From: Gracilinema caldarium DSM 7334
GTDB lineage: Bacteria > Spirochaetota > Spirochaetia > Treponematales > Breznakiellaceae
Reading direction: 5' to 3'
Assembly (NCBI RefSeq): GCF_000219725.1
Contig: NC_015732.1
Location: forward strand, 2,484,972 to 2,548,971
Length of the DNA stretch: 64,000 nucleotides
Shown here: in pieces, positions 1 to 23,834 of the stretch
Position numbering within the stretch: position 1 is the first letter of the stretch
How the letters are laid out: the number at the start of each line of letters is the position of its first letter
The notes under the pieces: model-generated
What the model was told of the DNA's origin: nothing
Database searches by the model: none
What the model saw: the letters and a program-made list of their open reading frames with translations, nothing else
Translations under genes and position numbers: made by a program

Positions 1-1164
1 GCAGATTCTTCTCTGGGTCGGGATGGCTACCTGTATATTTCCGATCAGAATGGAGAGCTGGTTTTTGCACCGGTAAACCAAACCATCTACCGGATCGCAC
101 CCCGGCAAATAGAGGGCTCAGAAGGGAGAACACTCCGCCGATGTAACCATGAAGTATTTCAGATCCTGTACAAACAGTCATCCTATACCGGATGGACCAC
201 CGCTGGAGTTTTTTCGATACAAAGTGTTCTCCGCGAAGTTTCTTTTATACGGTTTTACGCCCTAATTGTTGGAAGTTTCACCGTCCTCCTGGCCATTTTG
301 CTTTCGGTATTCTTTGCATCTTCCATAGCACTCCCCGTAGAAAAATTGCGTAGTTTGATGCGACAGGCTGAAACGGGAGATTTCTCCATCCGGTTTTCTG
401 AAAACCGTCAGGACGAGATCGGCCAACTCGGACACTCTTTTAATCGTATGATATTGGAAATCAGCAACCTGATCGACCAGGTATACCATGAACAACAACG
501 GAAACGAGAGACCGAGTTACGGGTTCTGCAAGAACAGATAAAACCGCACTTCCTATACAATACCCTCGATACCATTCAATGGATGGCCCAGGAACATAGA
601 GCCCAAGATATAGTAGACATGGTGAGCGCCTTAACCCAGCTATTTAGGGTTGGACTTTCTAAGGGTCAAGAAATGATACCTCTCCGGGAAGAACTCAGAC
701 ATGTGGAAAGCTATTTATTTATCCAGAAGGTCCGATATGAGGATAAGTTTGATTACACCATTTCTATAAGCCCTGGCATTGACCAGCTACGGGTGCTCAA
801 GGTGATTTTACAGCCCCTGGTAGAAAATGCCATTTATCATGGGATAAAGGAACGACGGGGTAAAGGGCACATCCTGGTTAGTGCTGAACGTGAGGGACCA
901 GACCTATTCCTGACCGTGGAAGATGACGGTATTGGAATGCCAGCAGACAAACTGGCACAACTGCAGGAAGAACTAAAGTCCAGTCATCAGTTGCATACAG
1001 ACAGCCATAAAGATTGGGGTGAAGGGGGGCATATCGGGTTCGGTGCCAGAAATGTCCATGAACGGATATTTTTAAATTTTGGACCCGATTATGGCATTAC
1101 CTACCAAAGCACCTGGGGTGTTGGTACCCGGGTTACCATCCGACATCCAGCAATAGAAGTATAA
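1..1164 (+). CDS. sensor histidine kinase, YesM/LytS type (HAMP + His_kinase + HATPase_c); 5' end lies outside the window
   Basis: The frame-1 ORF is open from base 1 with no stop. The translation has a HAMP-like segment, the FLYNTLDTIQW His-kinase motif and an N-box LVENAIYHG plus DDGIGM ATPase motif. The stop is TAA at 1162-1164. Confidence 0.85.
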   Translation, partial: ADSSLGRDGYLYISDQNGELVFAPVNQTIYRIAPRQIEGSEGRTLRRCNHEVFQILYKQSSYTGWTTAGVFSIQSVLREVSFIRFYALIVGSFTVLLAILLSVFFASSIALPVEKLRSLMRQAETGDFSIRFSENRQDEIGQLGHSFNRMILEISNLIDQVYHEQQRKRETELRVLQEQIKPHFLYNTLDTIQWMAQEHRAQDIVDMVSALTQLFRVGLSKGQEMIPLREELRHVESYLFIQKVRYEDKFDYTISISPGIDQLRVLKVILQPLVENAIYHGIKERRGKGHILVSAEREGPDLFLTVEDDGIGMPADKLAQLQEELKSSHQLHTDSHKDWGEGGHIGFGARNVHERIFLNFGPDYGITYQSTWGVGTRVTIRHPAIEV

Positions 1165-1179
1165 CACGGGAAAAAAACT

Positions 1180-2394
1180 ATGTGGAAAGTACTAATCGCC
1201 GATGATGAACCTAAAATCCGCCGAGGTATCCGTTCTGTCCTTGAGCGGCTTGATTCGGAAATTGAGGTGGTTGCCGAAGCAGGCGACGGCGAGGCGGCCC
1301 TTGCTCTGGCTGAGGAGACAATCCCGGATATCCTCTTTATCGATATTCGTATGCCCTTCTTAAATGGTCTTGAATTAATTGAAAAACTTTCTGGCCTTCC
1401 CCATGACTGGATTATTATTATCGTGAGCGGACACGATGAATTTGAGTATGCCAGAAAAGCAGTATCTCTTAAAGTCTTTGAGTATCTCTTAAAACCGGTA
1501 CAAGAAGCTGAAATAAAAAGAACACTGGAACACGCTAAAAATGAACTTGCCCTGCGGCGAGAAACAAATCGGTACATTAACTGGGCAAGAGAGAAAATAA
1601 CTGAACACCGAAGTACTCTGCAAGAACAATTTATTCTGGAATGGCTTTCATCATCCCTTTCGAAAACTGACATTGAAGACTGTTCCAAATTCCTGGGGCT
1701 TACCTTGCCAGAAAAAGCGGTGGTGCTTGCTATTCGGCTGGAGGAAAAGGTACTCTCAGTAGGAAGTTTGCAAGCTGGTTACCGGACCATTCTTATCTAT
1801 TCAGTACAATCAATTATTCAAGAACAGTTAGGTAAGGATATAATCTGCGTAATAGATAGAGATGATACGATTATTACCCTATATCCAGGGGATCTACAAG
1901 TATTACAAAATAAGATCCTTGGCATCGAAGCCGCTATTGAAGCGACAACCCATCAACATCCAATTATAGCAGTAGTGCCCAGCGGAAATTATAGAAAAGA
2001 AGGGCATCGCACGATACAGGAATCCTATGAAGAGGCCCTATCGGAGCTGACCAAGAAGGGAAATTACCAAACCTTTGTGCTCCTGGCTCAGGGATATATC
2101 GAAAAAAACTATCAATACCCGGATTTATCATTAGAGGAAACCGCATCGGAATTGGAAATCAGCCCAGGCTATTTGTCCCGGCTGCTTAAACAAGCAACCG
2201 GTTACTCCTTTGTAGAATATGTGAGCAGAGTTCGGATCCAGCATGCCCTGCAGTTATTAACAGATCCGGCAATAAAGATCTATGAAATTGCTGAAAAGGT
2301 AGGCTATCGTAGCCAGCATTACTTTAGCAGGGCTTTTAAACAGATACTGGGTATATCTCCCATCGAATACCGAAAGGGAGGCAGCTTACCATGA
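1180..2394 (+). CDS. two-component response regulator with REC domain and C-terminal AraC-type HTH (YesN-like)
   Basis: The N-terminus MWKVLIADDEPKIRRGIRSVL with DIRMP and VSGHDEF is a typical receiver domain. The C-terminus has AraC HTH signatures (ETASELEISPGYLSRLLKQ and IAEKVGYRSQHYFSRAFKQ). It starts 16 nt after the kinase stop and overlaps the next gene with ATGA. Confidence 0.85.
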   Translation: MWKVLIADDEPKIRRGIRSVLERLDSEIEVVAEAGDGEAALALAEETIPDILFIDIRMPFLNGLELIEKLSGLPHDWIIIIVSGHDEFEYARKAVSLKVFEYLLKPVQEAEIKRTLEHAKNELALRRETNRYINWAREKITEHRSTLQEQFILEWLSSSLSKTDIEDCSKFLGLTLPEKAVVLAIRLEEKVLSVGSLQAGYRTILIYSVQSIIQEQLGKDIICVIDRDDTIITLYPGDLQVLQNKILGIEAAIEATTHQHPIIAVVPSGNYRKEGHRTIQESYEEALSELTKKGNYQTFVLLAQGYIEKNYQYPDLSLEETASELEISPGYLSRLLKQATGYSFVEYVSRVRIQHALQLLTDPAIKIYEIAEKVGYRSQHYFSRAFKQILGISPIEYRKGGSLP

Positions 2395-4289
2395 AACGGT
2401 ATATCCAGCCTTCATTCATCCTCATTGCCCTTGGCATTATGGTCCTAGCCGTTTCCTTGCTCTGGTTTGTGAATATTCTACCCCTTATTTCATACAATAA
2501 GGTAGAGCCAGAAGTTGGCAAACTCATAGGCCTTTCACAGGCCAACCTTTCAGAACCATGGCGCATCAGCATGACGGAAGAAATAACCCAGCAGGCAAAA
2601 AAATACCTCGATATGCGGGTAATTATTACTGATGCGGTAGATTCCAGCGAACGCCAGGTTGATGATGTGAAACGGCTCCTTGCCTATGGCATCGATCTCC
2701 TTATCATCTCGCCGACAGATTCGCAGATTCTGACCCCCGTCGTAACTGAAGCGTATAAAACTATTCCAGTGATTGTACTGGATCGGGCAGTGGAAGGCTA
2801 TGATTACACCCTGTATATCGGTCCGGACAACCAGCTCATTGGTCGCGAGACGGGTCGCTATGTCTCAGAATTATTGGGAGAAAAGGGCGGTCAGGTCTGG
2901 GAAATTCAGGGCCGCTCAGGCTCTCCGCCTACCATCGACCGAAGTACCGGTTTACGGCAGGAAATTGAGCGACATCCCGGGATCAGATTGGTCAAAACAG
3001 TCACCGCCGATTGGCTCCGGGACCAAGCTGAGGATACCCTCTCTCATTTATTTAAAACCACCCCAACGCCCGATGTCATCGTATCCCAGAATGACGCCAT
3101 GGCCTATGGGGCAATTTTAGCAGCGAAGAAAGCAGCGGTTTCAAATATCAAATTCATCGGGGTAGATGGACTGGAGGGTGCCAATGGGGGCCTAGACCTG
3201 GTACGGAAGGGACTCCTATCAGCCACTTTTATTTGCCCCACCGGCGGAAAAGAAGCGGTAAACTACGCCTGGGATATTCTAGAAAAGAAACCCGGCATTC
3301 CCAAAAAAATATATTTACGCACAAGAAAGATAACCGCCGAAACAGTTAATGCTAATGTGGATCCCTATGCGTCATTCCGGCATCCCCGCTCCAACAAGGA
3401 ACCCATACGCCTCGGCTTTGCCCAGGTAGGAAGCGAAAGCCGTTGGCGGCTTACCAATACAAAATCGATAAAAGATGCGGCCCGTGACGCCGGCATTGAG
3501 CTTACCTTTATAGACGGCCAGCAAAAGCAGGAAAACCAGATTGCAGCGATCAGGTCATTTATCAAACAGAAGGTGGACATCATCGCCTTTTCACCGATTG
3601 TCGAATCAGGCTGGGAAGAGGTGCTCCAGGAAGCAAAAGCCGCAGGGATTCCGGTTATTCTTTCTGACCGGGAAGTAGATATAAAAGATGACTCCCTTTG
3701 GGCTACCTTTATCGGCTCAGATTTTCTAGAAGAGGGCCGACGGGCCGCCCGGTGGCTCCTGTCCTATATAGAACATCATCCTACCCCAGATGGTCAAGTT
3801 AATATCGTGGAACTCCAAGGGACGGTAGGTTCAGCTCCTGCCATTGACCGGAAACGGGGCTTTGAGCTAACCCTGGAACCTCATCCAGAGTTCCGCATCA
3901 TCCGATCGGAAATTGCCAATTTTTATTTCGATCAGGGCCGGGATGTGATGAAAAAAATCCTTGAAACGGAAAAGAGACGGATTGATGTCCTCTTTGCCCA
4001 CAATGATGATATGGCTCTGGGAGCAATTCAAACACTTGAATCAGCAGGACTGCGACCGGGAAAGGATATGGTGATCGTCTCGGTAGATGCGGTAAAGGAA
4101 GCCTTTCAGGCTATGATTGCGGGTAAACTCAACTGTACCGTGGAATGTACTCCCCTCCTGGGGCCCCAATTAATGAAAGTAATCCAGGATTATTTTGATG
4201 GAAAGGAACTACCCACCCGGATTATCACCAGTGAAGAAGTATTCCCCGCCGAGGTAGCCCGAACAGTACTGCCAAAACGTCGGTATTAA
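2391..4289 (+). CDS. membrane-anchored protein with two tandem periplasmic sugar-binding (PBP type I) domains; likely co-sensor for the upstream kinase
   Basis: It has an N-terminal hydrophobic helix (FILIALGIMVLAVSLLWFV). Residues ~50-330 look like a LacI/RbsB-type periplasmic binding fold. Residues ~335-632 are ~65% identical by eye to the adjacent YtfQ-like binding protein. The ATGA overlap with the regulator implies translational coupling. Confidence 0.75.
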   Translation: MKRYIQPSFILIALGIMVLAVSLLWFVNILPLISYNKVEPEVGKLIGLSQANLSEPWRISMTEEITQQAKKYLDMRVIITDAVDSSERQVDDVKRLLAYGIDLLIISPTDSQILTPVVTEAYKTIPVIVLDRAVEGYDYTLYIGPDNQLIGRETGRYVSELLGEKGGQVWEIQGRSGSPPTIDRSTGLRQEIERHPGIRLVKTVTADWLRDQAEDTLSHLFKTTPTPDVIVSQNDAMAYGAILAAKKAAVSNIKFIGVDGLEGANGGLDLVRKGLLSATFICPTGGKEAVNYAWDILEKKPGIPKKIYLRTRKITAETVNANVDPYASFRHPRSNKEPIRLGFAQVGSESRWRLTNTKSIKDAARDAGIELTFIDGQQKQENQIAAIRSFIKQKVDIIAFSPIVESGWEEVLQEAKAAGIPVILSDREVDIKDDSLWATFIGSDFLEEGRRAARWLLSYIEHHPTPDGQVNIVELQGTVGSAPAIDRKRGFELTLEPHPEFRIIRSEIANFYFDQGRDVMKKILETEKRRIDVLFAHNDDMALGAIQTLESAGLRPGKDMVIVSVDAVKEAFQAMIAGKLNCTVECTPLLGPQLMKVIQDYFDGKELPTRIITSEEVFPAEVARTVLPKRRY

Positions 4290-4398
4290 TGCATTTCTCA
4301 GTGCGTTATCGTACACAAAATTATGGAATCCTCTAAATACATATTCTCCAAGGGGTGCCACAATATTGGTATCAACGAAGCCCACAAAGGAGGCATGT

Positions 4399-5358
4399 AT
4401 GAAGAAATCCTTACAAGTTTTTGCGGGAGTGTGCGCACTCATCACCCTGGTGTCTCTGAACGCCTTTGCTCAGAGCAATAAAAAAATTGTGCTCGGGTTC
4501 TCCCAGATCGGGGCAGAAAGCGAATGGCGGACCGCCAACACCGAATCCATTAAGGCGGCTGCAGCTGCAGCGGGCATTGAACTAAAATTTGCCGATGCCC
4601 AGCAAAAGCAGGAAAACCAGATTAAAGCCATCCGCTCCTTTATTGCCCAGAAGGTAGATGTGATCGCCTTCTCACCGGTTGTAGAAACCGGTTGGGAAAC
4701 GGTGCTTCAGGAAGCCAAGCGGGCAAAAATTCCTGTTATTCTTACTGATCGAGCAGTTAATGTCAAAGATGATAGCCTTTATGTATCCTTTATGGGATCC
4801 GACTTTGTCGAAGAAGGCAGACGTGCTGCGGTCTGGCTCATGGGCTACCTGCACACCGACAAACCAGTAAACATTGTGGAACTCCAGGGCACCGTTGGTT
4901 CTGCTCCGGCCATCGACCGTAAGCGTGGTTTTGAGGAAATGCTGAAGCCCTTCCCCAATTATAAAATCATCCGTTCCCAGACCGGTGACTTTACCCGTGC
5001 CAAGGGCAAGGAAGTCATGGAAGCGTTCCTGAAGGCAGAAGGTAAGAATATCAATGTCCTCTTTGCCCACAATGACGACATGGCAATTGGTGCCATCCAG
5101 GCTATTGAAGAATTCGGACTAAAACCCGGAAAGGATATCATCATCGTATCCATCGATGCTGTAAAGGGCGCCTTCGAAGCAATGATCGCCGGTAAACTCA
5201 ATTGCACCGTGGAATGCTCTCCTCTGCTTGGAGAGCAGCTCATGGCTGCTGTTAAAGATCTGATGGCAGGAAAAACATTACCCAAACGGATCGTTACCAA
5301 TGAAGGTGTATACCCCGCAGAATTTGCGGCCCAGGTATTCCCCTCCCGCAAGTACTAG
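4399..5358 (+). CDS. ytfQ: ABC transporter periplasmic sugar-binding protein, YtfQ-like (galactofuranose-type CUT2 family)
   Basis: Signal peptide MKKSLQVFAGVCALITLVSLNAFAQ. An AAAGGAGG RBS sits 5 nt upstream of the ATG at 4399. The PBP-I fold matches YtfQ, and it is followed by a tandem-ATPase gene and two permeases as in ytfQRT-yjfF. Confidence 0.7.
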   Translation: MKKSLQVFAGVCALITLVSLNAFAQSNKKIVLGFSQIGAESEWRTANTESIKAAAAAAGIELKFADAQQKQENQIKAIRSFIAQKVDVIAFSPVVETGWETVLQEAKRAKIPVILTDRAVNVKDDSLYVSFMGSDFVEEGRRAAVWLMGYLHTDKPVNIVELQGTVGSAPAIDRKRGFEEMLKPFPNYKIIRSQTGDFTRAKGKEVMEAFLKAEGKNINVLFAHNDDMAIGAIQAIEEFGLKPGKDIIIVSIDAVKGAFEAMIAGKLNCTVECSPLLGEQLMAAVKDLMAGKTLPKRIVTNEGVYPAEFAAQVFPSRKY

Positions 5359-5376
5359 GGCTACTTGGTAACTACA

Positions 5377-5411
5377 GGGGCGTTTCGGCGTAAACCGGAA
5401 CGCCCTTTTTT
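5377..5411 (+). terminator. GC-rich hairpin plus T-run between the SBP and ATPase genes (partial terminator or attenuator)
   Basis: GGGGCGTTTCGGCG-TAAA-CCGGAACGCCC is followed by TTTTTTAT, directly after the ytfQ-like stop and before the RBS of the next gene. Confidence 0.55.
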
Positions 5412-5430
5412 ATCAAAGGAGAATTACAGC

Positions 5431-6972
5431 ATGGAAAATATTGAAATTCTTTCCATGGTTAACATTTCAAAGTATTTTCCCGGAGTCAGGGCCCTTTCAC
5501 AGGTTAATTTTTCCTTAAAAAGCGGAGAAATTCATGCCCTTATGGGGCAGAATGGAGCCGGGAAATCCACATTAATAAAAATAATGACCGGAGTATATCA
5601 ACCTGACTCGGGTCACATGTATCTTCGAGGGGAAAGCATAAAAGTAGAATCCCCTGAACATGCTCAGACCCTGGGAATCGCGACCGTTTACCAGGAAGTA
5701 AATCTTTGCCCCAATGTAACAGTTGCAGAGAACCTTTTGCTCGGACGAGAACCACGGAATCTCATAGGTATTAAATGGAAGCATCTTTTTGAGGAAGCCC
5801 ATAAAATTATTAAAGAAAAATTGGACCTTGATCTGGACACAACAAAACCTCTTGGTTCTTACTCTCTGGCAATTCAACAAATGATCGCTATTGCCCGATC
5901 CCTCTGTGTGAAATCGGACATTTTAATACTTGATGAACCAACTTCGAGTCTTGATGAAGCCGAAGTTGAGCGGCTGTTTTACATTTTGCGTAAGTTAAAA
6001 AATGAAGGAATGGCGATTCTCTTTATAACTCATTTCATAGATCAGGTATATGCCGTATCCGATCGGATTACGGTTCTGCGGAACGGCGAATACATAGGAA
6101 CCGCAGAGGCCTCTGCATTATCCAAACTCGAACTCATTAGCATGATGGTTGGTAAGGATCCAGCAGAACTTGCAGCAACAGCAACCAGGCAGGAAGTAAA
6201 ACTTTCCCATGGTACCGAGGAGCTTCTTAAAGTTGATGGATTGGGCCGTACTGGCTATCTTAAACCCATCAACATAAGCTTAAAAAAAGGCGAAGTTCTC
6301 GGCCTGGCAGGGTTACTCGGCTCAGGACGTACGGAGACTGCAAAACTGATATTCGGGGCCGAACGGGCACTTGAAGGTAAATTATTCCGGAATGGGCAGG
6401 AAGTTGCCTTATCCGCCCCCCGGGATGCCATTATGGTTGGAATGGGATTCTGTCCGGAGGACAGAAAAACCGAAGGCCTTATTGGCGACCTTTCCATCCG
6501 GGAGAATATCATACTCGCATTGCAGGCAAAACAGGGTATCCTAAAATACATACCCCGGAAGACTCAGGAGGAAATTGCAAATCAGTTTATTAAAGAACTG
6601 GGTATAAAGACCCCCGATGCGGAACGACCGGTCAAAACCCTATCCGGCGGCAACCAGCAGAAGGTACTACTTGCCCGATGGCTTGCAACAAAACCGGCTA
6701 TACTCATTTTAGATGAACCAACCAGAGGAATTGATGTGGCCGCCAAAAGTGAAATTCTACAACGTATTTTACAATTAAGGAATGAAGGCCTGTCGATAAT
6801 ATTCATTTCATCGGAGTTGGAAGAAGTATCAGCTATCAGCGACCGGGTTGCGGTTTTCCGGGATAAAAAAAAGATTGCTGAAATAGAAGGTACTGAAATT
6901 AATGAGCATACCATTATGCGTCTTATTGCCCAGGAGGAGCTAGAAAATGAAAAACAAGTTAAAGCGAATTAA
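5431..6972 (+). CDS. ytfR: sugar ABC transporter ATP-binding protein with duplicated ATPase domains (YtfR-like)
   Basis: Two Walker A motifs (GQNGAGKST and GLLGSGRT), two signature motifs (LSGGNQQK) and two Walker B motifs (ILILDEPT). An AAAGGAG RBS lies before the ATG at 5431. Confidence 0.8.
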   Translation: MENIEILSMVNISKYFPGVRALSQVNFSLKSGEIHALMGQNGAGKSTLIKIMTGVYQPDSGHMYLRGESIKVESPEHAQTLGIATVYQEVNLCPNVTVAENLLLGREPRNLIGIKWKHLFEEAHKIIKEKLDLDLDTTKPLGSYSLAIQQMIAIARSLCVKSDILILDEPTSSLDEAEVERLFYILRKLKNEGMAILFITHFIDQVYAVSDRITVLRNGEYIGTAEASALSKLELISMMVGKDPAELAATATRQEVKLSHGTEELLKVDGLGRTGYLKPINISLKKGEVLGLAGLLGSGRTETAKLIFGAERALEGKLFRNGQEVALSAPRDAIMVGMGFCPEDRKTEGLIGDLSIRENIILALQAKQGILKYIPRKTQEEIANQFIKELGIKTPDAERPVKTLSGGNQQKVLLARWLATKPAILILDEPTRGIDVAAKSEILQRILQLRNEGLSIIFISSELEEVSAISDRVAVFRDKKKIAEIEGTEINEHTIMRLIAQEELENEKQVKAN

Positions 6973-7999
6973 CGACACCACCTTATTCTGGCCCTTTATG
7001 GTCCTTCTTTTATTGTTATTGATTAATGCATTTTTAACGAAAGGATTTTTTTCAATTGAATGGAAGGATGGCCGGTTCTCCGGCATCCTTGTTGATATTC
7101 TAAATAGGTCTACCTATATCGGTATCATTGCCATTGGACTGACTCTGGTAATTTCCACCGGCGGAATCGATATATCGGTGGGATCCGTGGTTGCTATTTC
7201 CGGAGCTATTGCAGCATACCTTATCGGCGGAGAATTAATCTTGCAGGGGGACCAACAGGTACTAGTTACCCGGACCCCTATGGGAGTTGCTATTACAGCG
7301 GCTCTCTTATCCGCCCTTATTTTAGGGATGTGGAATGGGTTTCTCGTTTCACGACTCCGAATCCAGCCAATTGTAGCTACCCTGATCCTTATGGTCGCAG
7401 GAAGGGGCATCGCCCAGCTGGTTACCAACGGACAAATTATCACCATTTATTACAAACCTTACTATTTTATTGGAAACGGCACCTTTCTTGGCATCCCCTT
7501 TTCATTGTATATTCTGCTTGCTGTTCTGATACTGGTCATCCTCGCAACAAGAAAGACTGCCCTGGGACTCTTTTTTGAATCGATCGGCGTGAATAGAACT
7601 GCAAGCCGTTACTCAGGAATACAGGAACAACGGATCGTGTTCTGGTCTTATGCATTCTGTGCTTTCTGTGCCGGTGTCTCGGGGCTTCTAGTAAGTTCCA
7701 ATGTAAAAAGTGCCGACGGAAACAACGCGGGAGACCTCTTTGAACTGGATGCCATTTTAGCAGTAGTTATTGGCGGTACTTCTCTAAATGGGGGCAAATT
7801 CAATCTGGCAGGCTCTATTCTCGGGGCGGTCATTATTCAGACCCTGACAACAACCATCTATTCTATCGGAGTACCGCCCCAGGTCAACTTAGTTATAAAG
7901 TCCATCGTTGTATTTTTAGTGAGCATGCTTCAGTCGGAAAACTTTAGAGCCCTGTTCCGCTTTGGCCGCAAGAGCTTTCAGATGAGAGGCGCTTTATGA
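6947..7999 (+). CDS. ytfT: sugar ABC transporter permease (YtfT-like, CUT2 family)
   Basis: Multi-span hydrophobic protein in the AraH/RbsC permease family. Its start overlaps the ATPase 3' end. Confidence 0.75.
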   Translation: MKNKLKRINDTTLFWPFMVLLLLLLINAFLTKGFFSIEWKDGRFSGILVDILNRSTYIGIIAIGLTLVISTGGIDISVGSVVAISGAIAAYLIGGELILQGDQQVLVTRTPMGVAITAALLSALILGMWNGFLVSRLRIQPIVATLILMVAGRGIAQLVTNGQIITIYYKPYYFIGNGTFLGIPFSLYILLAVLILVILATRKTALGLFFESIGVNRTASRYSGIQEQRIVFWSYAFCAFCAGVSGLLVSSNVKSADGNNAGDLFELDAILAVVIGGTSLNGGKFNLAGSILGAVIIQTLTTTIYSIGVPPQVNLVIKSIVVFLVSMLQSENFRALFRFGRKSFQMRGAL

Positions 8000-8991
8000 A
8001 ACAGATTGATAGAAAACATCTGCCCTTTATTGTCACCGTGAGTCTCTTTATTGTAATGTACAGTGCTGGTTCCATCGCCTACCCAAATTTTCTTTCAATC
8101 CAGGTGTTCATCAACCTGTTTATTGATAATGCCTTTTTAGGGATTGCGGCGGTAGGCATGACCTTTGTCATCCTATCTGGCGGGATTGATCTGTCTATGG
8201 GATCCGTAGTTGCCTTAGTCACGATGATCTCCGCGGACCTGCTGCGAAAGGATGTGCCACCGGCGGTGGTGATCCCGGTGGTACTTCTTGCAGCTTCCGG
8301 TATTGGACTCTTTCAGGGTATCATGATCCAGTTTTTTAAGGTGCAACCCTTTATCGCAACCCTGGCGGGGATGTTCTTTGCCCGGGGAGCTTGCTACCTC
8401 ATCAGCATAGATACCATCAATATTGAAAATGATTGGTATCGGGATGTTAGCATGGCTGCTATAGAGTTGCCAACCGGCGATTTTATTTCAGTTAACGTCT
8501 TGATTTTTGTAGTCTTTGCCATAGTCGGATGGTGGTTACTGCGCTTTACCCGTTTCGGAAGAACCGTTTATGCCATAGGGGGTTCGGAGCAATCGGCCCT
8601 ACTCATGGGCTTGCCAGTTAATCGAACCAAAGTTTTAATTTATACCTTTAATGGCTTTTGTTCAGGCCTGGCAGGCATTGTGTTTACTTTTTATATGCTT
8701 TCCGGGTATGCACTTCACTGCAAGGACCTGCACATGGATGCCATTGCAGCGGTCGTCATGGGCGGAACCCTTTTAACTGGCGGCGTCGGATCCATTGGCG
8801 GCTCTATCATGGGGGTTCTGATTCTAGGAACCATCCAGACCATCATCAATTTCCAGGGAACCTTAAGTTCCTGGTGGACCCGAATTGTGGTGGGCATCCT
8901 AATATTTGCATTTATATTGATGCAAAGCCTTTTGAATCGGCCTATGAAAGTTACCAATAAGAACAGCAAACAAGAACAAAACGCAGCCTAA
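7996..8991 (+). CDS. yjfF: sugar ABC transporter permease (YjfF-like, CUT2 family)
   Basis: It is the second CUT2 permease paralog. Its start overlaps the previous stop with ATGA. Confidence 0.75.
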   Translation: MKQIDRKHLPFIVTVSLFIVMYSAGSIAYPNFLSIQVFINLFIDNAFLGIAAVGMTFVILSGGIDLSMGSVVALVTMISADLLRKDVPPAVVIPVVLLAASGIGLFQGIMIQFFKVQPFIATLAGMFFARGACYLISIDTINIENDWYRDVSMAAIELPTGDFISVNVLIFVVFAIVGWWLLRFTRFGRTVYAIGGSEQSALLMGLPVNRTKVLIYTFNGFCSGLAGIVFTFYMLSGYALHCKDLHMDAIAAVVMGGTLLTGGVGSIGGSIMGVLILGTIQTIINFQGTLSSWWTRIVVGILIFAFILMQSLLNRPMKVTNKNSKQEQNAA

Positions 8992-8995
8992 GATT

Positions 8996-9019
8996 AAGCC
9001 CGCAGGTGCGGGCTTTTTT
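8996..9019. terminator. rho-independent terminator hairpin between convergent operons
   Basis: AAGCCCGC-AGGT-GCGGGCTT is followed by TTTTTT immediately after the yjfF-like stop. It is A-rich on the opposite side, facing the convergent alpha-galactosidase gene. Confidence 0.75.
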
Positions 9020-9039: not shown

Positions 9040-11229
9040 TTATTCAGCTCTAAACCTGAAAATAATGCTTTGATTTTCCTGTAAAGGATAGGGTAATAAT
9101 AACCCCACCTGCATTAATTCTTCTCCCCAAAATACTTTCCCATCGCCTAACAGTCTGTATTTATAGTTTGATTGTAATCCCTTCAATCGCACTATTCTGA
9201 AAACATCATTTGCTTCAGTTCGTAATAATACAAAGGTTACCAATACTTCTCGTTTATCCTTTGATACGTAGCTCCATGAAGTGTACACTAAAGGGAACTC
9301 TTCATTATCTAATCGATATAGATCACCAAATTGTACAAGAGGGCGTATCTCTTTATAAAATGATACCTGTTCTTTAATTTCTGTTTTATCTGCTTCAGTT
9401 AGTCTTGTTAAATCTAATTCATAACCAAAATTGCCTGCCATTGCTACCGCACCACGCAACGATAAGGGGACAACTCTTCCGGTCTGATGATTTGGTACAG
9501 TGGAGACATGGGCTCCCATAGTAATTGCGGGATATGGGATAGTTGTACCCTTTTGGATATAAATCCTAGAAATTGCATCTGTATTATCACTGGTCCATGT
9601 CTGAGGCATATAATACAACATGCCCGGATCAAACCGTCCGCCACCTCCAGAACAACTTTCAAAAAGAATATCTGGAAATGAAGAGGTAATCCGTTCTAAT
9701 ATTTCATAGAGGCCAAGAACATAACGATGAGAGATTTCACCTTGTTGAGAGGAAGAAAACGCAGATGAACCGATCTCAGTTAAATGTCTATTCATATCCC
9801 ATTTAACATACGATATTGGAGCACTGCTTAAAACCATCGTGATTGTTTCAATTATATACTCTCTTACTTCGCGACGTGTCAAATCGAGCACTAACTGGTT
9901 CCGTCCTTCGGAACGTGAACGATTGGGAACATGCAGACACCAATCTGGATGCGTTTTATATAATCTACTTTCAACAGATACCATCTCTGGCTCTACCCAA
10001 ATACCAAATTTCATGCCAAGCTTGTTGATCTCTTCAGCTAAAGTTTTTAACCCGCCTGGTAATTTGTGTTTATCAGGAAACCAATCACCAAGAGAGCGTT
10101 TATCATCTTTTCTGTTGTCAAACCAGCCATCATCGAGAACAAATAATTCTATTCCGAGAGGGGCTGCCTCTTTTGCAAGAGAGACTAATTTATCTTCGTT
10201 AAAATCGAAGTAGGTACCTTCCCAATTATTAATGAGTATCGGACGAACCGTATCACGGTATTTTCCCCGGCACAAACGTTTCCGATATAAATCATGAAAT
10301 GTCCGGGACATGTCTCCCAAACCGTTTCTACTATAAACCATTACAACTTCTGGTGTCTGGAATTGTTCCCCCGGATTTAAAACCCAATTAAAATTCAGCG
10401 GGTTAATTCCCATCATAACTCGTATCATTTCAAATTGATCTACTTCTACCTGAGCAAGGAAATTGCCTGAATAAACCAGATTAAAACCAAAAACTTCACC
10501 GTGGTCTTCATCAGCATCAGGAGAAAGAATAGCAATAAATGGGTTCTGTTGATGACTACTGGTTCCTCGACGACTTTCTATGGATTGCATTCCTGGAACC
10601 AGAGATCGGGTATATATATGACGTTCACGGCAGTGGGCCCCTGATAGCTGTAAGAGCTTATACTTTTTATTGGGAAAATCAAGACTAAAACTCATTGTTT
10701 GTAATAAGGAGATGCAATTTTCTGAATCATTTATAAATCTGACATTTCTTGTAATGACATCAAATTCATTCCAAACTGTATATGAAAGAATACAACGCAA
10801 TCTTCCTACTGGATCAAATAGAATAATTTCCAGCGTGTCTGCTTCTTGATTATTTTCTATATATGTACCAGGCAATTTATCTAAACCTGGTTTCCCTTTT
10901 ATAATACGATATTCTTTATACCATAAGTCAGCAACTCTGCTGCCATCTTGATACTGAATTGTATAGGCTGGCGAGCGAAAATCTGTTCTTCCATATCCAG
11001 GATATTCTTGTGGTAATGTATCTAAAGAAAAAGTCCTGTCATCCGGTTCAGGATTAGGAGAAAACGAGCGATCTATAAACTGTAATGAATACGACCCATT
11101 CCATTCTTGCAAGATACTATACCAACCAAGATGCGCAACATATTTTCCACGAACAATCTGAATAATATAACTTGAATGTATGGTTTTTAGATGAAACACG
11201 TTATGCTCAGGCGAATAGGTAATACTCAT
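9040..11229 (-). CDS. alpha-galactosidase, glycoside hydrolase family 36 (melibiase/raffinose type)
   Basis: 729-aa product with GH36 hallmarks (FVLDDGWF, KFGIWVEPEMV, CSGGGGRFD). The likely start is the ATG for MSITY at 11229, preceded by an AAGAGGA RBS. Confidence 0.85.
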   Translation of the reverse strand: MSITYSPEHNVFHLKTIHSSYIIQIVRGKYVAHLGWYSILQEWNGSYSLQFIDRSFSPNPEPDDRTFSLDTLPQEYPGYGRTDFRSPAYTIQYQDGSRVADLWYKEYRIIKGKPGLDKLPGTYIENNQEADTLEIILFDPVGRLRCILSYTVWNEFDVITRNVRFINDSENCISLLQTMSFSLDFPNKKYKLLQLSGAHCRERHIYTRSLVPGMQSIESRRGTSSHQQNPFIAILSPDADEDHGEVFGFNLVYSGNFLAQVEVDQFEMIRVMMGINPLNFNWVLNPGEQFQTPEVVMVYSRNGLGDMSRTFHDLYRKRLCRGKYRDTVRPILINNWEGTYFDFNEDKLVSLAKEAAPLGIELFVLDDGWFDNRKDDKRSLGDWFPDKHKLPGGLKTLAEEINKLGMKFGIWVEPEMVSVESRLYKTHPDWCLHVPNRSRSEGRNQLVLDLTRREVREYIIETITMVLSSAPISYVKWDMNRHLTEIGSSAFSSSQQGEISHRYVLGLYEILERITSSFPDILFESCSGGGGRFDPGMLYYMPQTWTSDNTDAISRIYIQKGTTIPYPAITMGAHVSTVPNHQTGRVVPLSLRGAVAMAGNFGYELDLTRLTEADKTEIKEQVSFYKEIRPLVQFGDLYRLDNEEFPLVYTSWSYVSKDKREVLVTFVLLRTEANDVFRIVRLKGLQSNYKYRLLGDGKVFWGEELMQVGLLLPYPLQENQSIIFRFRAE

Positions 11230-11246
11230 ATTTATTCCTCTTATTG

Positions 11247-11300
11247 CGTTTTTATAAAAATACACGTACTCCTTAAATGTAAAGAGAAGTACGTGTATTT
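11247..11300. terminator. inverted repeat between the SBP gene and the alpha-galactosidase gene (internal terminator or processing hairpin)
   Basis: AAAATACACGTACT ... AGTACGTGTATTT form a 13-bp stem around a 16-nt loop. On the minus strand it is followed by TTTTATAAAA. Confidence 0.45.
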
Positions 11301-11312
11301 GTTTCTGATTAT

Positions 11313-12665
11313 TTATTTAAACAGATCAAGAATTTTTTTATTCGCGTCCTTAAGTCCAGCTTCAGGAGTCACCTTTCCGATAAAAATTGCATCGAAGGTC
11401 TGAGTCATTATTTCACTGATTTTTACTCCATTTTCAACGACTGGATATACAAAGGTACCATTTTTCTCATTAGCTTCATCTGTAAAGGCGGTTACATTGA
11501 TGTTTTTAGAAGTATATGCTTTTAATGCTTCATCAACACCAGCTTTGATTGCGGGGAATACAACTCCATAACTACCAACAATCTTCTGAGCCTCTTCTGA
11601 AGCGAGATATTTGACCCATTGCCAGGCTTCTTCTGGATGTTTTGTACCTACCCAAATAGAATCCGCAAGACCATTTATCATACTGCGTCGACCAACTGGC
11701 CCTACGGGAAGTTTGGCAAAACCAACCTTAAAGGGAGAACTGCTGGTATAATAGCCAATCATCCAGGAGCCATCGAATACTGTTGCAGCTTTTTTTGACG
11801 TAAAAAGTGAATTTGCTCCGTTTACAGTATCTTCATAGGAAGCCATATAGCCCTTTTTAGTGACCCTTACCATCCATTCAATTGTTTTAATAAAACGCGG
11901 ATCATCAAAATGGAAATTCGCATTGTACAGTCCATCCGTATACATCCATCCAGTACTAACGGCCAGAGGACTAAATTGTGCTTGCCCTCTGTCATCACTA
12001 TGATTTAATGCTATTCCATACTGAACTACATTATTTGCATCAAAACTGGGATCTAGACCATTTTTACCATTTTTATCGATAGAAAGTTTTGCGATAAATT
12101 TTTCAAAAGTTCCACCATCATTTGGATTCCAGGTTAATTCATTTGCTTCCTTTTCAGAAATTCCTGCAGCCTTTAGCATTTCCGCATTATAAACGATCGC
12201 AATAGTATCCCAATCTTTCGGAAGCCCATATCGCTTACCATCTTTTGTTGCCCAGAGTCCGGCTAAACCATTCATGTATATCGAAGTATCTACATTATCC
12301 CGCTTAACAAGAGGAGTAATGTCTACCAATTGTTTTTTTGAAGAAAAGTCCGGGTATTTTGCCAGGTGGTTCGTAAATACATCTGGAGCAGTACCGCTGA
12401 CCATATCGGTCTGCAGTGCAGTCCAATAATCCCCCCACCCTAATTGTTCAATTTTAATTTGAATGTTGGGATTTTTTGCCATAAAGCTTTCCGCAACTTT
12501 CTGATATGCGGGTAACTGATTCGCATCCCAGAGTACATATCGTATGGTAACTTTCCCACTACTTTTACTGGTACTCTGTTTTGCATCCTCACTGGTGCCT
12601 GAAGCAAACACCATACTGGATATGGCAATTGCCATAACCATTAAAACCAAGCTTCTCTTTTTCAT
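11313..12665 (-). CDS. extracellular solute-binding protein family 1 (CUT1 sugar ABC transporter SBP)
   Basis: Signal or lipoprotein-like N-terminus MKKRSLVLMVMAIAISSMVFASG. A GGAGGA RBS lies before the ATG at 12665. The fold matches MalE/MsmE-type oligosaccharide binders. Confidence 0.8.
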   Translation of the reverse strand: MKKRSLVLMVMAIAISSMVFASGTSEDAKQSTSKSSGKVTIRYVLWDANQLPAYQKVAESFMAKNPNIQIKIEQLGWGDYWTALQTDMVSGTAPDVFTNHLAKYPDFSSKKQLVDITPLVKRDNVDTSIYMNGLAGLWATKDGKRYGLPKDWDTIAIVYNAEMLKAAGISEKEANELTWNPNDGGTFEKFIAKLSIDKNGKNGLDPSFDANNVVQYGIALNHSDDRGQAQFSPLAVSTGWMYTDGLYNANFHFDDPRFIKTIEWMVRVTKKGYMASYEDTVNGANSLFTSKKAATVFDGSWMIGYYTSSSPFKVGFAKLPVGPVGRRSMINGLADSIWVGTKHPEEAWQWVKYLASEEAQKIVGSYGVVFPAIKAGVDEALKAYTSKNINVTAFTDEANEKNGTFVYPVVENGVKISEIMTQTFDAIFIGKVTPEAGLKDANKKILDLFK

Positions 12666-12721
12666 AAGCTTCTCCTCCAAAACCATATGTTATTCCAAGG
12701 GCCAGGCCCGGAATTTTCGAT

Positions 12722-13624
12722 TTAGCGGAACCCCGAAAAACCAATCGAATCTACTATTTTTCTTCCAAAAAGAATGAAAATACCGAAGGTAGGTATCATA
12801 GCCAGAGTAGTCCCTGCCATCATACCGCTCCAATCAGGCTGTCCTTGCGGTGTTTGCAACCGGAAAATTGCAAGCGCAACGGTAAGGGTTCGTATACTTT
12901 CTTTTTTACCCACAATTAGTGGCCACATATAATCATTCCATGCAGTGATAAAGGTGATTACCGCTAAAGTTGTCAGTGCAGTAGTACTAATCGGAAGAAT
13001 TACCTCAATAAATGTTTTCAAGTATCCAGCCCCATCAAGGTAGGCAGCTTCTTCCAATTCCTTGTTAATACGCAAAAAGAATTGTCTCAGAAAGAAAACG
13101 GCAAAAGGGGTCATCAGCAATGTTGGTGCCATAATCCCCCAATAAGAATTTAATAAGCCTAATTGCTTTACAAGGATAAAATTGGGAAGCATAGTGACAA
13201 TCCCTGGTATCATCAAAGTAGAGACATAGAGACTAAACAAATTATCACGAAATCTGAAATGCAGGCGGGCAAACGCATAGGCTGCCATAGAAGAAAATAA
13301 AACTTGAAAAAAGGTAACCCCTATTGAAACCAGAAATGAGTTATAAATATTTAAGAAGAAATTTACCTTCTGGCCGGAACCACCCATTTTTATTGCTGTT
13401 TCAGAATCAATTAATCCCAAAACGCGGGCATAATTTAACAAAGTAGCATGAGGTGGCCATAGTGCGGTAGGATTTGCAAAAACAGATTGTTGTGGTGCTA
13501 CGGATGTTCGAAAAACCCAATAAAATGGAAAAAGGGTTAAAAATAGAAATAAAACTACTATTATAAATACTGCCATTTTATATAACATGTTCGTTCTTTG
13601 GTTGATTGATAAGGAGTTCTTCAT
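12722..13624 (-). CDS. sugar ABC transporter permease (MalG/MsmG-like)
   Basis: Has the EAA-loop motif (EAAYLDGAGYLKTFIEVILP) and six predicted TM segments. Confidence 0.8.
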   Translation of the reverse strand: MKNSLSINQRTNMLYKMAVFIIVVLFLFLTLFPFYWVFRTSVAPQQSVFANPTALWPPHATLLNYARVLGLIDSETAIKMGGSGQKVNFFLNIYNSFLVSIGVTFFQVLFSSMAAYAFARLHFRFRDNLFSLYVSTLMIPGIVTMLPNFILVKQLGLLNSYWGIMAPTLLMTPFAVFFLRQFFLRINKELEEAAYLDGAGYLKTFIEVILPISTTALTTLAVITFITAWNDYMWPLIVGKKESIRTLTVALAIFRLQTPQGQPDWSGMMAGTTLAMIPTFGIFILFGRKIVDSIGFSGFR

Positions 13625-13636
13625 ATCTGTATTCCT

Positions 13637-14530
13637 TTAAAAGTCTGACTCATTTGCTCTGGACAATCGCATCTGCAAAAAGCTGATACCAATTAATATG
13701 AGGAAAAGGACCATCGAAACTGCAGTGGCATATCCCATACGATAACTTTCAAAACCATTTTTAAATATATACAAATAAATAACATACGTTGCGTTTACAG
13801 GCCCACCTTTTGTGGTAACCGCAATCGTATCGTATATTTGAAACGAACCAATAACAGAGGTAATGACAACAAAGGCAAGAACAGGTTTTAAGTAGGGGAT
13901 GAGAATTGTAAAAAATCGTTTCCAGGGGCCAGCACCATCAATTAATGCGGCTTCTTCGACTTCTTTAGGAAATCCTTGAATGCCTGCAAAAACAATTAAA
14001 GCCGTATATCCCATATGGCGCCAGATATTTATAGCTGCTACTGATGGTAACGATAGGGTATCAGAAAAAAGGAATGGAACAGATTTAAAACCGACAGCTT
14101 TAATTATTTCATTAATAATACCAATTGCGGGATCCATCATCCAGAGCCAAAGAAGGGCAACTACAACATTTGGTAACAACCATGGAATAAGAAACAAGCT
14201 TCTTACCAACACGGAAGAAGTAGATCGTTCCATAATCATGGCAAGCAGTAATGCTAAAACAGTTTGTATTGGTATATTCCAGAGGACATACTGAAACGTG
14301 ATAAAGAGAGAATGCCAGAAATCTGGATCAGTAATCAGTGCCTTATAATTTTTAAAACCAATAAATTCAGCCTTACTTAATAAATCCCAGTTTGTAAAAC
14401 TTAACCAAAAACCACGTAACGTAGGTACTAGGAAAAACATGCTGAATCCAATCAAGCTCGGGAAAATGAAGAAAAGGGCTATTATATGCTCTCTTGTGGT
14501 ATGTGATGAAACATTCTTTATGCCTTTCAT
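13637..14530 (-). CDS. sugar ABC transporter permease (MalF/MsmF-like)
   Basis: Has the EAA motif (EEAALIDGAGPWKRFFTILIPYLKP). An AGGAGG RBS lies 9 nt before the ATG at 14530. Confidence 0.8.
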   Translation of the reverse strand: MKGIKNVSSHTTREHIIALFFIFPSLIGFSMFFLVPTLRGFWLSFTNWDLLSKAEFIGFKNYKALITDPDFWHSLFITFQYVLWNIPIQTVLALLLAMIMERSTSSVLVRSLFLIPWLLPNVVVALLWLWMMDPAIGIINEIIKAVGFKSVPFLFSDTLSLPSVAAINIWRHMGYTALIVFAGIQGFPKEVEEAALIDGAGPWKRFFTILIPYLKPVLAFVVITSVIGSFQIYDTIAVTTKGGPVNATYVIYLYIFKNGFESYRMGYATAVSMVLFLILIGISFLQMRLSRANESDF

Positions 14531-14698
14531 CCTTTCACACCTCCTATTCAAAACTATACTACGATTTGTAAAATCTGTAAAGTTATAATGTAAATATTTT
14601 CTAATTATCTGAAATTTATTTCTATTATTTTAATTAATTCTCCATAATCATATATTTACAAGACCTTCACTTTAGATATAATTGGTTCAGAGAAAATT

Positions 14699-15703
14699 AT
14701 GACTATACAAGAAATAGCACTGGAAGCAGGTGTATCAACTGCAACTGTATCCCGAGTAATTAATAATCAGCCGGTAAGCAAAGAAAAGCGGGAATTGGTT
14801 GAGGGAGCGATTCGTCGCTTAAATTATTTGCCCGATGATCTGACTCGTAGACATTTGGGAACCCCCTACAAAGCTGTAGCTGTCCTAACCCATAGCATGA
14901 CTAATCCATATAGCATGGAGTTTGTTGAAACAATTATAGATAGATATGAAGAATTGGGGATAAATGTATATGTAAGCAGGAATGAAACTGCTGACATTGA
15001 GTATCGCTGCCTTGCGGATCTGCTTGCCCGGGGTGTTGAAGGCATTATTCTCCACGATCCACCTTTTAAAAACTACGAGACCGGCCTATTTACAAAGATT
15101 TCTGAACGATTACCCCTTGTTATTGTACATTCTTTTAATCAAGTTTTGGAAATGAATGAAGTTGTTGTGGACCAATACTACGGTATGAAAAAAGTAATGT
15201 CCCACCTCATCGGGCTTGGACACCGGGATATTCTGTTTCTCAGAAATAAAATTGGTTATTCATTAGATTTAAAAGAAAAAGTATGGAGAGAGGAACTTAC
15301 CCTGGCCGGGACGCCTCCAAAGGATAATTATGTATTAGTAATTCCTGATGCTGACAAAGAAGCAGGAATAAAAGAAACTGAAGATATTGTACGAGAGTTC
15401 TTTGTCTCGAATAAAAGGCCCACAGCAATATTTGCAGCCAATGATATGATGGGGGTAGGGGCACTTAATGTGATTAAAGAGCTTGGACTGAGAGTCCCGG
15501 AGGATATTTCTGTTATCAGTCATGACAATACAATGCTTGCCGCTAGTTATCATTTAAGCTCTGTGGACCTTAAAATTAAAAGTGTCGCCCATGCGGTCGT
15601 CGATTTAATGCAGTATGTTGTCAATGGCCACGATAAAGAGCCACGGAGAATCATGATCACCCCGGAGCTTATCCTCCGTGGTTCCACAGCGAAAATTGGA
15701 TAG
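14699..15703 (+). CDS. LacI family transcriptional regulator
   Basis: N-terminal HTH (MTIQEIALEAGVSTATVSRVINN) plus a periplasmic-binding-like effector domain. It is transcribed divergently from the ABC/alpha-galactosidase operon. Confidence 0.85.
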   Translation: MTIQEIALEAGVSTATVSRVINNQPVSKEKRELVEGAIRRLNYLPDDLTRRHLGTPYKAVAVLTHSMTNPYSMEFVETIIDRYEELGINVYVSRNETADIEYRCLADLLARGVEGIILHDPPFKNYETGLFTKISERLPLVIVHSFNQVLEMNEVVVDQYYGMKKVMSHLIGLGHRDILFLRNKIGYSLDLKEKVWREELTLAGTPPKDNYVLVIPDADKEAGIKETEDIVREFFVSNKRPTAIFAANDMMGVGALNVIKELGLRVPEDISVISHDNTMLAASYHLSSVDLKIKSVAHAVVDLMQYVVNGHDKEPRRIMITPELILRGSTAKIG

Positions 15704-15717
15704 TATATGTATTAGCT

Positions 15718-16752: not shown

Positions 16753-16861
16753 AGGAGTACCTCCATGCTAAGGTTCGCCTATGGATGTTAAAAAAGGCCT
16801 AAAAAAGTATTAGAATTATATAAAAAGTTCCGCTCCTTGAGACTTCTGCCAGGAGGTTTCC

Positions 16862-18289: not shown

Positions 18290-18316
18290 GCAGGGTCAGA
18301 GACCCCATGGTGACCA

Positions 18317-21299: not shown

Positions 21300-21443
21300 T
21301 TTTTTTTGCTCTTTTTCAGCTAAATTCTGGAAGCAGCCTTCTCTTAAAAGATTTTCTCCCTTACTTTGTGGGCTGTTTTTATGCTTCTTTTCCTTGGTTA
21401 CTGCTAATTTGGATGGTTTTATACGGATTTAGGTTTAAATAAA

Positions 21444-21731: not shown

Positions 21732-21846
21732 GAACGTTTCTAAAATTGAATTATTTTTTTTAGACATAGGAGCAAATGTTTGCAGAGTTGGCTTAAAAGT
21801 TTAAAAAACTGCTAAAAATCAAAAATTTTGTCCTCTCCATAATATA

Positions 21847-23827: not shown

Positions 23828-23834
23828 AACATAG

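Follow-up and report, generated by a model that had tools for sequence, protein, structure and literature searches.

A putative three-component furanose sensor-importer module with a tandem periplasmic-binding co-sensor in the spirochaete Gracilinema caldarium DSM 7334

In this study, we analyzed a stretch of 64,000 nucleotides from Gracilinema caldarium DSM 7334 (contig NC_015732.1, positions 2,484,972 to 2,548,971; hereafter the window) and in it a cassette of seven genes, all on the plus strand (1-8991), in which sensor genes are followed by importer genes. Judged from its sequence, and with a probability that we set at about 60%, this cassette encodes a three-component furanose sensor-importer module: a sensor histidine kinase, a response regulator predicted to act on a bipartite operator, and a membrane-tethered co-sensor consisting of two ligand-competent type-I periplasmic-binding protein (PBP-I) modules in tandem. 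This reading of the core sensing module is founded on synteny across phyla, on the conserved operator and on intact pockets in both PBP domains. A preliminary description of the sequence had placed a YesM-like kinase, a REC-AraC regulator and an anchored tandem PBP 5′ of a CUT2-type importer on the same strand, and Pfam, NCBIfam and reading of the open reading frames (ORFs) gave the same arrangement.

The window opens inside the gene of the YesM-type sensor histidine kinase. Its 3′ part (1..1164, plus strand, 388 codons) encodes, according to Pfam, the final ~70 residues of dCache_1, the second transmembrane helix (TM2), HAMP, His_kinase (PF06580) and HATPase_c; the ~205 N-terminal residues with TM1 and most of dCache_1 lie beyond the window edge. 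Full-length orthologues of 568-637 aa have TM1, a dCache_1 domain of ~250 aa, TM2, HAMP, His_kinase and HATPase. The YesN-like response regulator (1180..2394, plus strand, 404 aa) combines a REC domain with an AraC-type helix-turn-helix, with Pfam scores of 91 bits for Response_reg, 83 for HTH_18 and 70 for HTH_AraC. The translational coupling described earlier was found for the regulator and co-sensor genes, whose stop and start codons share ATGA at 2391-2394 with a AAGGGAGG ribosome-binding site upstream, while the gap between kinase and regulator genes had to be corrected from 16 nt to 15 nt (1165-1179, between the stop codon TAA at 1162-1164 and the ATG at 1180).

The co-sensor (2391..4289, plus strand, 632 aa) was delimited by Pfam, NCBIfam, PDB matches and AlphaFold2. 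It starts with a signal-anchor helix at residues 7-35 (2409..2495, plus strand), assigned from hydropathy and from the AlphaFold2 helix and predicted to lie N-in/C-out; K2 and R3 precede it, and its mean Kyte-Doolittle hydropathy is 2.85 over 19 residues. By a crude classifier, the anchors of 130 homologues were lipobox-like with a cysteine in 87 cases and transmembrane-like in 34, and membrane tethering appears to be a conserved feature of the tandem proteins. The AlphaFold2 model, calculated from a 75-sequence alignment, has a mean predicted local distance difference test score (pLDDT) of 91.5 and a predicted template modelling score (pTM) of 0.84, with PBP folds at residues 44-315 and 340-629. 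Together with the Pfam and PDB matches it bears out the earlier claim of two complete PBP-I domains behind a single N-terminal transmembrane anchor. The linker between them (residues 316-338; 3336..3404, plus strand) has a pLDDT of 58-73. Its length is restricted to 24-26 aa in 109 of 131 homologues and its sequence is variable, with a majority-residue identity of 38% compared to 73-76% in the two domains. A PDB chain spanning both modules was not found in the Foldseek search (TMq at most 0.45).

The best 120 database matches of the co-sensor, with 58-91% identity, were nearly all of full tandem length with few truncated fragments, which rules out that the fusion is an artefact of assembly or of a frameshift. 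Named homologues among them came from Treponema, Rectinemataceae and Spirochaetia metagenome-assembled genomes (MAGs), and the top matches had 90-91% identity, one of them named as a Treponema sp. MAG. A search of cluster representatives gave ~25 full-length tandem clusters at 50% identity, down to 27-30% identity to the query, and the tandem form was found in reference genomes of Spirochaetia, Pelosinus, Bacillus sp. SD088, Gracilibacillus massiliensis, Clostridium and Butyrivibrio. The co-sensor had been called unusual, which holds relative to the literature searched but not for genomes of Spirochaetota and Bacillota, where it is common. In the source databases, the homologues are named 'substrate-binding domain-containing protein' or 'galactofuranose/simple sugar transport system substrate-binding protein'; annotation as a transport binding protein mislabels the tandem co-sensors.

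The genomic context of the co-sensor is kept as well. Related loci are cited here by our handles (L for loci, P for proteins). The whole module stands together in 12 of 14 loci from Spirochaetia, Pelosinus, Bacillus, Gracilibacillus, Clostridium and Butyrivibrio; of the other two, L003 ends just after the co-sensor gene and L011 has only transporter genes. Gene order is shuffled in the Firmicutes loci, and the Butyrivibrio locus L012 has no listed match for the regulator. Since the genes flanking the cassette are unrelated among three close relatives, the seven-gene cassette, found in Spirochaetota and Bacillota, behaves as a self-contained unit. Even tandem proteins of 27-36% identity keep the triad of dCache kinase, AraC regulator and tandem PBP, in L082 also with a 4-nt overlap. 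In four loci (L006, L007, L010, L012), the tandem PBP stays beside kinase and regulator although the transporter genes move.

The N-module (residues 44-315; 2520..3335, plus strand) was assigned to a sensor clade of PBP-I proteins by Pfam, PDB match and Foldseek. For residues 50-330, on which the preliminary description had made its tandem claim depend, HMM and structure searches returned a PBP fold: Peripla_BP_1 matches residues 47-256, and the sensor domain of BT1754 (PDB 2x7x) matches with E 1.4e-53, 39% identity and a Foldseek TMt of 0.85. The next solved relative follows at E 2.4e-32, and XylFII (5xsj) at E 4.7e-9, also below ribose-binding proteins. The N-module is ~28% identical to the substrate-binding protein (SBP) of the adjacent importer. 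Single-domain relatives of 304-346 aa match the N-module only (38-49% identity) and have an N-terminal anchor and the motif IGxSQANLxEPWR. All four that were placed in their loci (P0164, P0177, P0221, P0176) are encoded immediately 3′ of a regulator gene of AraC type, which three of them overlap by 4 nt; a dCache-HAMP-His_kinase kinase is encoded upstream in both contigs that reach far enough, and a CUT2 transporter lies alongside in one. The N-module belongs to a sensor-dedicated PBP clade, single-domain members of which fill the co-sensor slot in such triads. Kinases of this type would therefore have the N-module as their canonical partner, and the C-module would be an addition. A comparison of distance matrices over 10 loci gave r 0.80-0.93 within a sensory block (periplasmic and cytoplasmic parts of the kinase, regulator, N-module) and r 0.94-0.96 within a transporter block (ATPase and two permeases). 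In these few and non-independent loci, the periplasmic domain of the kinase was tracked by the N-module with r 0.80 and by the C-module with r 0.61, which only weakly suggests co-variation of the N-module with the sensor domain of the kinase.

These contexts bear on the possibility that the tandem PBP has no signalling role and is a co-transcribed transport binding protein, the kinase sensing through dCache_1. Transport SBP is what the source annotations say, and dCache_1 is a common direct ligand sensor, but tandem proteins of 91% down to 27% identity and from different phyla, as well as single-domain relatives, keep the coupling to the regulator, and the tandem PBP remains beside kinase and regulator even where transporter genes move. 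We therefore regard this explanation as highly improbable.

The C-module (residues 339-632; 3405..4286, plus strand) was identified by NCBIfam, PDB and Foldseek as a GafA/YtfQ-type furanose-binding PBP-I domain. It reaches 409 bits with the NCBIfam YtfQ model and E 3e-93 with PDB 6hyh/6hbd/6hb0, with further matches to 5ocp and 2vk2; its model superimposes on the liganded structures 6hbm, 6hbd and 2vk2 with TMt 0.93-0.95 and a root-mean-square deviation of 1.4-1.5 Å (Foldseek). The SBP gene follows 109 nt downstream of the co-sensor gene and encodes a secreted GafA/YtfQ-like protein of 319 aa (4399..5358, plus strand; Pfam Peripla_BP_4, NCBIfam YtfQ_transport), starting with ATG at 4399 and with its signal peptide ending at ...NAFA|QS. 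As stated earlier, the second domain of the co-sensor is a paralogue of this SBP, with 66% identity at the protein level and 71-75% at the DNA level (families D6 and D8). A recent duplication or gene conversion between C-module and SBP was not supported, as a neighbour-joining tree contained no within-genome pairing; the same tree was too poorly resolved to tell a single origin of the fusion.

For comparison of the sugar pockets, we used ten positions that we take to be those of N13, F15, F16, D89, R90, R141, F164, N190, D215 and Q235 in the E. coli ribose-binding protein. Arg38 and Asp111 of YtfQ agree with the positions used (PMC10191376). The corresponding residues are E55, W57, R58, D131, R132, R184, W208, N234, D259 and C282 in the N-module, and S350, W352, R353, D426, R427, R487, F511, N538, D566 and C586 in the C-module. 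Eight of the ten N-module residues are identical to those of the BT1754 pocket, with one further conservative E/D change, and both the C-module and the SBP keep the W-R, D-R, R, F, N and D of the GafA binding site. In 131 tandem proteins, the single positions are conserved to 92-100% in the N-module and 95-100% in the C-module; because each position is at least 92% conserved, both modules look ligand-competent. Known ligands of the GafA proteins are D-galactofuranose and/or L-arabinofuranose, and the binding sites of these proteins consist of identical residues (PMC10191376). Together with the importer, the C-module thus points to a furanose ligand, probably D-galactofuranose and/or L-arabinofuranose.

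Two intact and separately conserved pockets could also mean that the modules bind different sugars, or one sugar at very different affinities, thereby providing AND/OR logic or a wider dynamic range. The two modules share only about 28% identity and resemble receptors of different sugars, the fructose sensor BT1754 on the one hand and the binders of galactofuranose and arabinofuranose of the GafA type on the other, and the tandem binding domains of GlnPQ differ in specificity and affinity (PMC8025302). However, the first-shell residues are nearly one set in both pockets (W-R, D-R, R, W/F, N, D, C), and the cassettes of the relatives come without a second transporter or pathway. Such an integration of two inputs is conceivable but, in our view, doubtful.

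The C-module has kept the conserved positions of GafA-type SBPs. When 128 C-modules were compared with 72 GafA-type SBPs, all 41 GafA-conserved positions were kept and none was lost or switched, a scan for functional divergence that could not tell a C-module used only for sensing from one that docks on the permeases. This matters for a further explanation, by which the N-module holds the kinase and the C-module docks on YtfT/YjfF or competes with free SBP. If true, expression would be set by transporter occupancy or flux and not by external sugar, which would be a case of 'trigger transporter' sensing by a paralogue of a binding protein. The absence of any type-I or type-II loss at the GafA transport positions, the 66% identity to the cognate SBP and the tethering at the membrane beside the permeases would all fit. 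On the other side, the permeases are not tracked better by the C-module (r 0.69-0.75) than by the N-module (r 0.72-0.80). In L001, L002 and L004, from Rectinemataceae and relatives within the Spirochaetia, the cognate SBPs have diverged to ~50% identity to the window C-domain while the C-modules of these loci stay at 66-69%, and the C-modules of distant tandem proteins are unrelated to the neighboring SBP: for P0137 (L090), P0208 (L092) and P0191 (L082), the adjacent SBP has no significant similarity to the C-domain of its own tandem protein, and a general paralogy of C-module and neighboring SBP was rejected. Therefore, 'matching the transporter' is no general rule and holds for the GafA subfamily. 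We consider it unlikely that the C-module reports on the transporter.

Alternatively, the N-module alone might signal, with the C-module serving as a tethered extra transport SBP for constitutive basal uptake before the SBP is induced. Retention of all GafA-conserved residues by the C-module, the place of the tandem gene in the sensor operon upstream of the predicted inducible promoter, and the fact that single-domain N-type co-sensors suffice in other triads would agree with this. But a separate SBP is encoded at every checked locus except L003, which ends after the co-sensor gene, and the restricted linker length and the pTM of 0.84 speak for two modules held in a defined arrangement, and less for an SBP that swings freely, so that this division appears quite improbable to us.

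A candidate operator of 29 bp, TACACAAAAT-N10-TCTAAATAC, was found at 4312..4340 (plus strand) by footprint conservation and motif scan. It lies in the 109-nt spacer between tandem-PBP and SBP genes, in which the block GTGCGKTATCGTACACAAAAT...TCTAAATACA is conserved in four relatives. Box 2 stands in the -35 region of a predicted promoter with a -10-like CACAAT at 4359-4364, a placement that would fit an activator of the AraC family. The bipartite motif also occurs 5′ of transporter genes in Pelosinus, Clostridium, Bacillus and Gracilibacillus, with a -10 element ~18-20 nt later; altogether, the operator is present before transporter genes in the window and 12 related loci from both phyla. With the loose pattern T[AGT][TC]A[ACT][AG][AGT][AT]A-N9-16-TNTAAATAC, both strands of 807 kb from 20 sources were scanned. 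There were 13 matches, all on the coding strand and either just after the co-sensor gene or 5′ of SBP/ATPase genes, compared to less than one match expected by chance in 807 kb (a rough estimate from base frequencies). The matches include L003, L004, L020 and L009, none of which had served in designing the pattern. In Gracilibacillus L007, the SBP gene is apart from the ATPase-permease genes and the pattern is found at both promoters; the ATPase promoter of Bacillus SD088 L006 has only a box-2-like TTCTAAATACA. No further operator copies beyond chance were found in the window. The adjacent importer may be controlled by the regulator of the cassette through the predicted operator. Also, no terminator was detected between the tandem-PBP and SBP genes by hairpin scan.

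Two further observations concern the non-coding parts of related cassettes. Upstream of the kinase gene, relatives have the box-1-like sequences GTGCACAAAATT / GTGCACAAAATTACCGA followed by an extended -10 element TGGTATAMT (L083 ~6925-6950, L084 ~6760-6790, L086 ~4590-4610), a hint that the sensor module may regulate its own genes; in G. caldarium, the corresponding region lies beyond the window. In Rectinemataceae and relatives within the Spirochaetia, the tandem-PBP and SBP genes are ~0.9 kb apart (L001, with similar spacing in L002, L004 and L008). In L001 (11894-12589), this gap contains an ORF of 231 aa for an apparently secreted protein, and in L004 the operator motif is located upstream of the corresponding gap.

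Based on these data, we propose the following mechanism. The kinase would not read the sugar alone but would be served by the membrane-tethered co-sensor with its two ligand-competent PBP-I modules. The N-module would be the ancestral kinase-coupled receptor, and the added C-module would match the ligand class of the sensor to that of the importer under its control. Closure of the modules upon sugar binding would alter how the co-sensor engages the periplasmic domain of the kinase, which would then phosphorylate the REC-AraC regulator. The regulator would bind at 4312-4340 and activate the SBP, ATPase and permease genes, which would also be transcribed at a basal level by read-through from the sensor genes. 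Gene content, domain folds, conservation of the pockets, synteny and conservation of the operator were observed; in this scheme, we infer the contact of co-sensor and kinase, the contacting module, the ligands, activation rather than repression, and the division of work between the two PBP domains.

Several points weigh against the proposed sensor-importer module. The window lacks most of the periplasmic sensor domain of the kinase, and the mirror-tree comparison draws on 10 loci that are not independent. Close paralogy of C-module and neighboring SBP is not seen in the distant tandem subfamilies. Three of the four importer components are under the NCBIfam equivalog cut-offs (SBP/YtfQ 394 vs 510, YtfR 677 vs 850 and YtfT 330 vs 535 bits) and only YjfF passes (427 vs 363 bits); YtfQ, YtfR, YtfT and YjfF are the top-scoring NCBIfam families for the respective proteins. 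The kinase might sense sugar itself through its dCache_1 domain, because dCache_1 domains often bind small ligands directly. The CuaSR pair can in part sense sugar by itself (PMC10384115). Finally, the window has no furanosidase or catabolic genes, and therefore we infer, rather than read from neighboring genes, the ligand in this spirochaete.

For the ligand class, relatives of the cassette are informative. A hydrolase or catabolic gene belonging to the cassette was not found in the window or in close relatives, the flanks of which differ. In Gracilibacillus massiliensis (L007) and Bacillus sp. SD088 (L006), a 1,300-aa enzyme of glycoside hydrolase family 2 (GH2) with PA14 and ConA-like domains is encoded after the cassette on the same strand. 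The catalytic core of the Gracilibacillus enzyme, the only one of the two tested, matches PDB 9j6n ('Beta-D-galactofuranosidase 2') with E 1.9e-184. An LPxTATN sorting signal makes anchoring in the cell wall probable for this enzyme. In both loci, GH43 enzymes bearing PA14 domains also lie near the cassette; the enzyme regions are located at 15848-21884 in L007, and at 15721-19617 and 3314-5266 (minus strand) in L006. The presence of GH2 and GH43 enzymes beside the cassette therefore links the family to the release of extracellular galactofuranose, perhaps also arabinofuranose, and the furanose ligand class suggested earlier gains support from the β-D-galactofuranosidase homologue in these two Bacilli. 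In Roseateles (L049, 14686-16386), a GH2 homologue lies near a single-domain ytfQ gene without tandem sensor.

Like XylFII-LytS-YesN, CuaDSR and the Geobacillus three-component systems, which we take to be AraPST/GanPST, the cassette combines a dedicated non-transport binding protein with a PF06580 kinase and a REC-AraC regulator beside an ABC importer with its own SBP. It also shares with the generic three-component class a kinase with an extracytoplasmic domain between two transmembrane helices, followed by HAMP, His_kinase and HATPase, and an adjacent REC-AraC gene. The resemblance to XylFII-LytS-YesN that had been noted is functional only, as orthology fails for both the co-sensor and the kinase sensor domain, given the E of 4.7e-9 for XylFII and dCache_1 instead of a TarH-like sensor. 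XylFII of the D-xylose sensor of Clostridium beijerinckii (PDB 5XSJ) has one PBP-I module instead of two and is only distantly related to the N-module; LytS is listed as TarH-like with an unannotated sensor domain (PMC8050422), and CuaD of Ruminiclostridium cellulolyticum belongs to a different SBP class. A dedicated sensing SBP beside a transport SBP is known for XylFII/XylF, CuaD/CuaA and the Geobacillus systems, and binding-protein-dependent kinases comprise LuxPQ, TorTS, ChvE-VirA, XylFII-LytS, HptAS and CuaDSR (PMC8050422, PMC10384115). LuxP-LuxQ also pairs a Peripla_BP_4 protein with a kinase bearing a dCache-like periplasmic domain (PMC8050422), but LuxP is a single soluble PBP with autoinducer AI-2 as ligand, LuxQ is of the hybrid type, and the system does not control an importer.

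The two modules themselves have relatives in other contexts. In BT1754, a hybrid two-component system from Bacteroides thetaiotaomicron, monomeric fructose is bound directly by the periplasmic domain (PMC3404733). There, as here, a PBP-I domain is used for signalling rather than transport and the output is of AraC type, but the PBP is fused to kinase, receiver and AraC domains, whereas the cassette has a separate tethered protein with a second PBP and a dCache kinase. The importer genes and the C-module are of the same family as GafABCD/YtfQRT-YjfF (E. coli 2VK2, Mycobacterium smegmatis MSMEG_1712 6HBD/6HBM, Shewanella 5OCP), for which the regulators named in PMC10191376 are cytoplasmic, AraC for the E. 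coli operon and AraJ/R-like ones elsewhere, unlike the periplasmic three-component sensor predicted here. Two binding folds in series on one extracytoplasmic chain are known from GlnPQ (PMC8025302) and from the tandem PBPb domains of Vibrio cholerae CdgH (PMC5431781). These are, however, type-II (SBP_bac_3-like) domains fused to a permease or a signalling enzyme, unlike the type-I domains on a separate polypeptide found here. BvgS and EvgS are likewise tandem Venus-flytrap sensors with type-II domains fused to a signalling enzyme. A co-sensor with two type-I PBP modules was not found in the review PMC8050422 or in full-text literature searches; the tandem-PBP co-sensor is thus undescribed in the literature searched, yet it is frequent in sequence databases and unnamed. 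PBP-I modules appear to have been recruited into several further architectures: seven proteins of 635-1117 aa (P0138, P0158, P0182, P0201, P0224, P0242, P0260) join a GafA-like or N-type PBP to unrelated N-terminal regions, which may be protein-kinase-like at the start of P0201 and is permease-looking in P0260.

The importer genes follow the SBP gene on the plus strand. The YtfR/GafB-like ATPase with two ABC domains (5431..6972; NCBIfam YtfR_transport) had been listed with a TTG start at 5365, which is probably wrong: the YtfR alignment begins at residue 28 of this ORF, and a AAAGGAGA ribosome-binding site precedes the ATG at 5431, the probable start. The permeases are YtfT/GafC-like (6947..7999; NCBIfam YtfT, Pfam BPD_transp_2) and YjfF/GafD-like (7996..8991; NCBIfam PRK11618 YjfF, 427 bits). 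In the 72-nt space between the SBP and ATPase genes, a strong hairpin with a 13-bp stem including 8 GC pairs is followed by a T-run (5376-5407, plus strand); it might partly terminate transcription or stabilise the mRNA and thereby raise the SBP over the membrane components. A terminator-like hairpin with T-run (8996-9015, plus strand; hairpin scan) closes the operon. The Rfam scan of the window gave no matches.

Downstream, a second sugar locus converges on the cassette (9040-15703). It looks like a CUT1 system of the melibiose/raffinose type and consists of genes for a GH36 α-galactosidase (9040-11265), an SBP_bac_1 protein (11313-12686) and two BPD_transp_1 permeases (12722-14551), all on the minus strand, and a LacI-family regulator on the plus strand (14699-15703). 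A diverged segmental duplication (15410-17053 vs 21438-24607, 81-87% identity) covers the 3′ end of the LacI gene, a glycosyltransferase gene and the start of rtcB, and its second copy is split by an insertion sequence. This insertion sequence is present in two copies, at 22176-23770 and 60643-62235, which are 98-100% identical, encode a DDE_Tnp_1_2/DUF772 transposase and have the end AGTATACTAAATTA in common (at 23755 and 62221). At 18317-20504 on the minus strand, an SNF2/Helicase_C protein seems split: an ORF of 210 aa with the end of SNF2-rel_dom and Helicase_C overlaps an ORF of 535 aa without Pfam match, and the gene may be frameshifted or disrupted.

Known three-component sugar sensors are a handful, all with a single binding protein, and the proteins described here define a widespread family with two intact pockets, present in Spirochaetota and in several classes of Bacillota; in the subfamily of the window, the additional module is of the receptor type that the transporter itself uses. 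A natural test bed becomes available for how binding-protein-dependent kinases gain ligand specificity by domain addition. The cassette would be a portable furanose-responsive unit with a predicted operator, of possible use as a biosensor, and it is a pointer to scavenging of galactofuranose or arabinofuranose by spirochaetes and by gut or soil Firmicutes.

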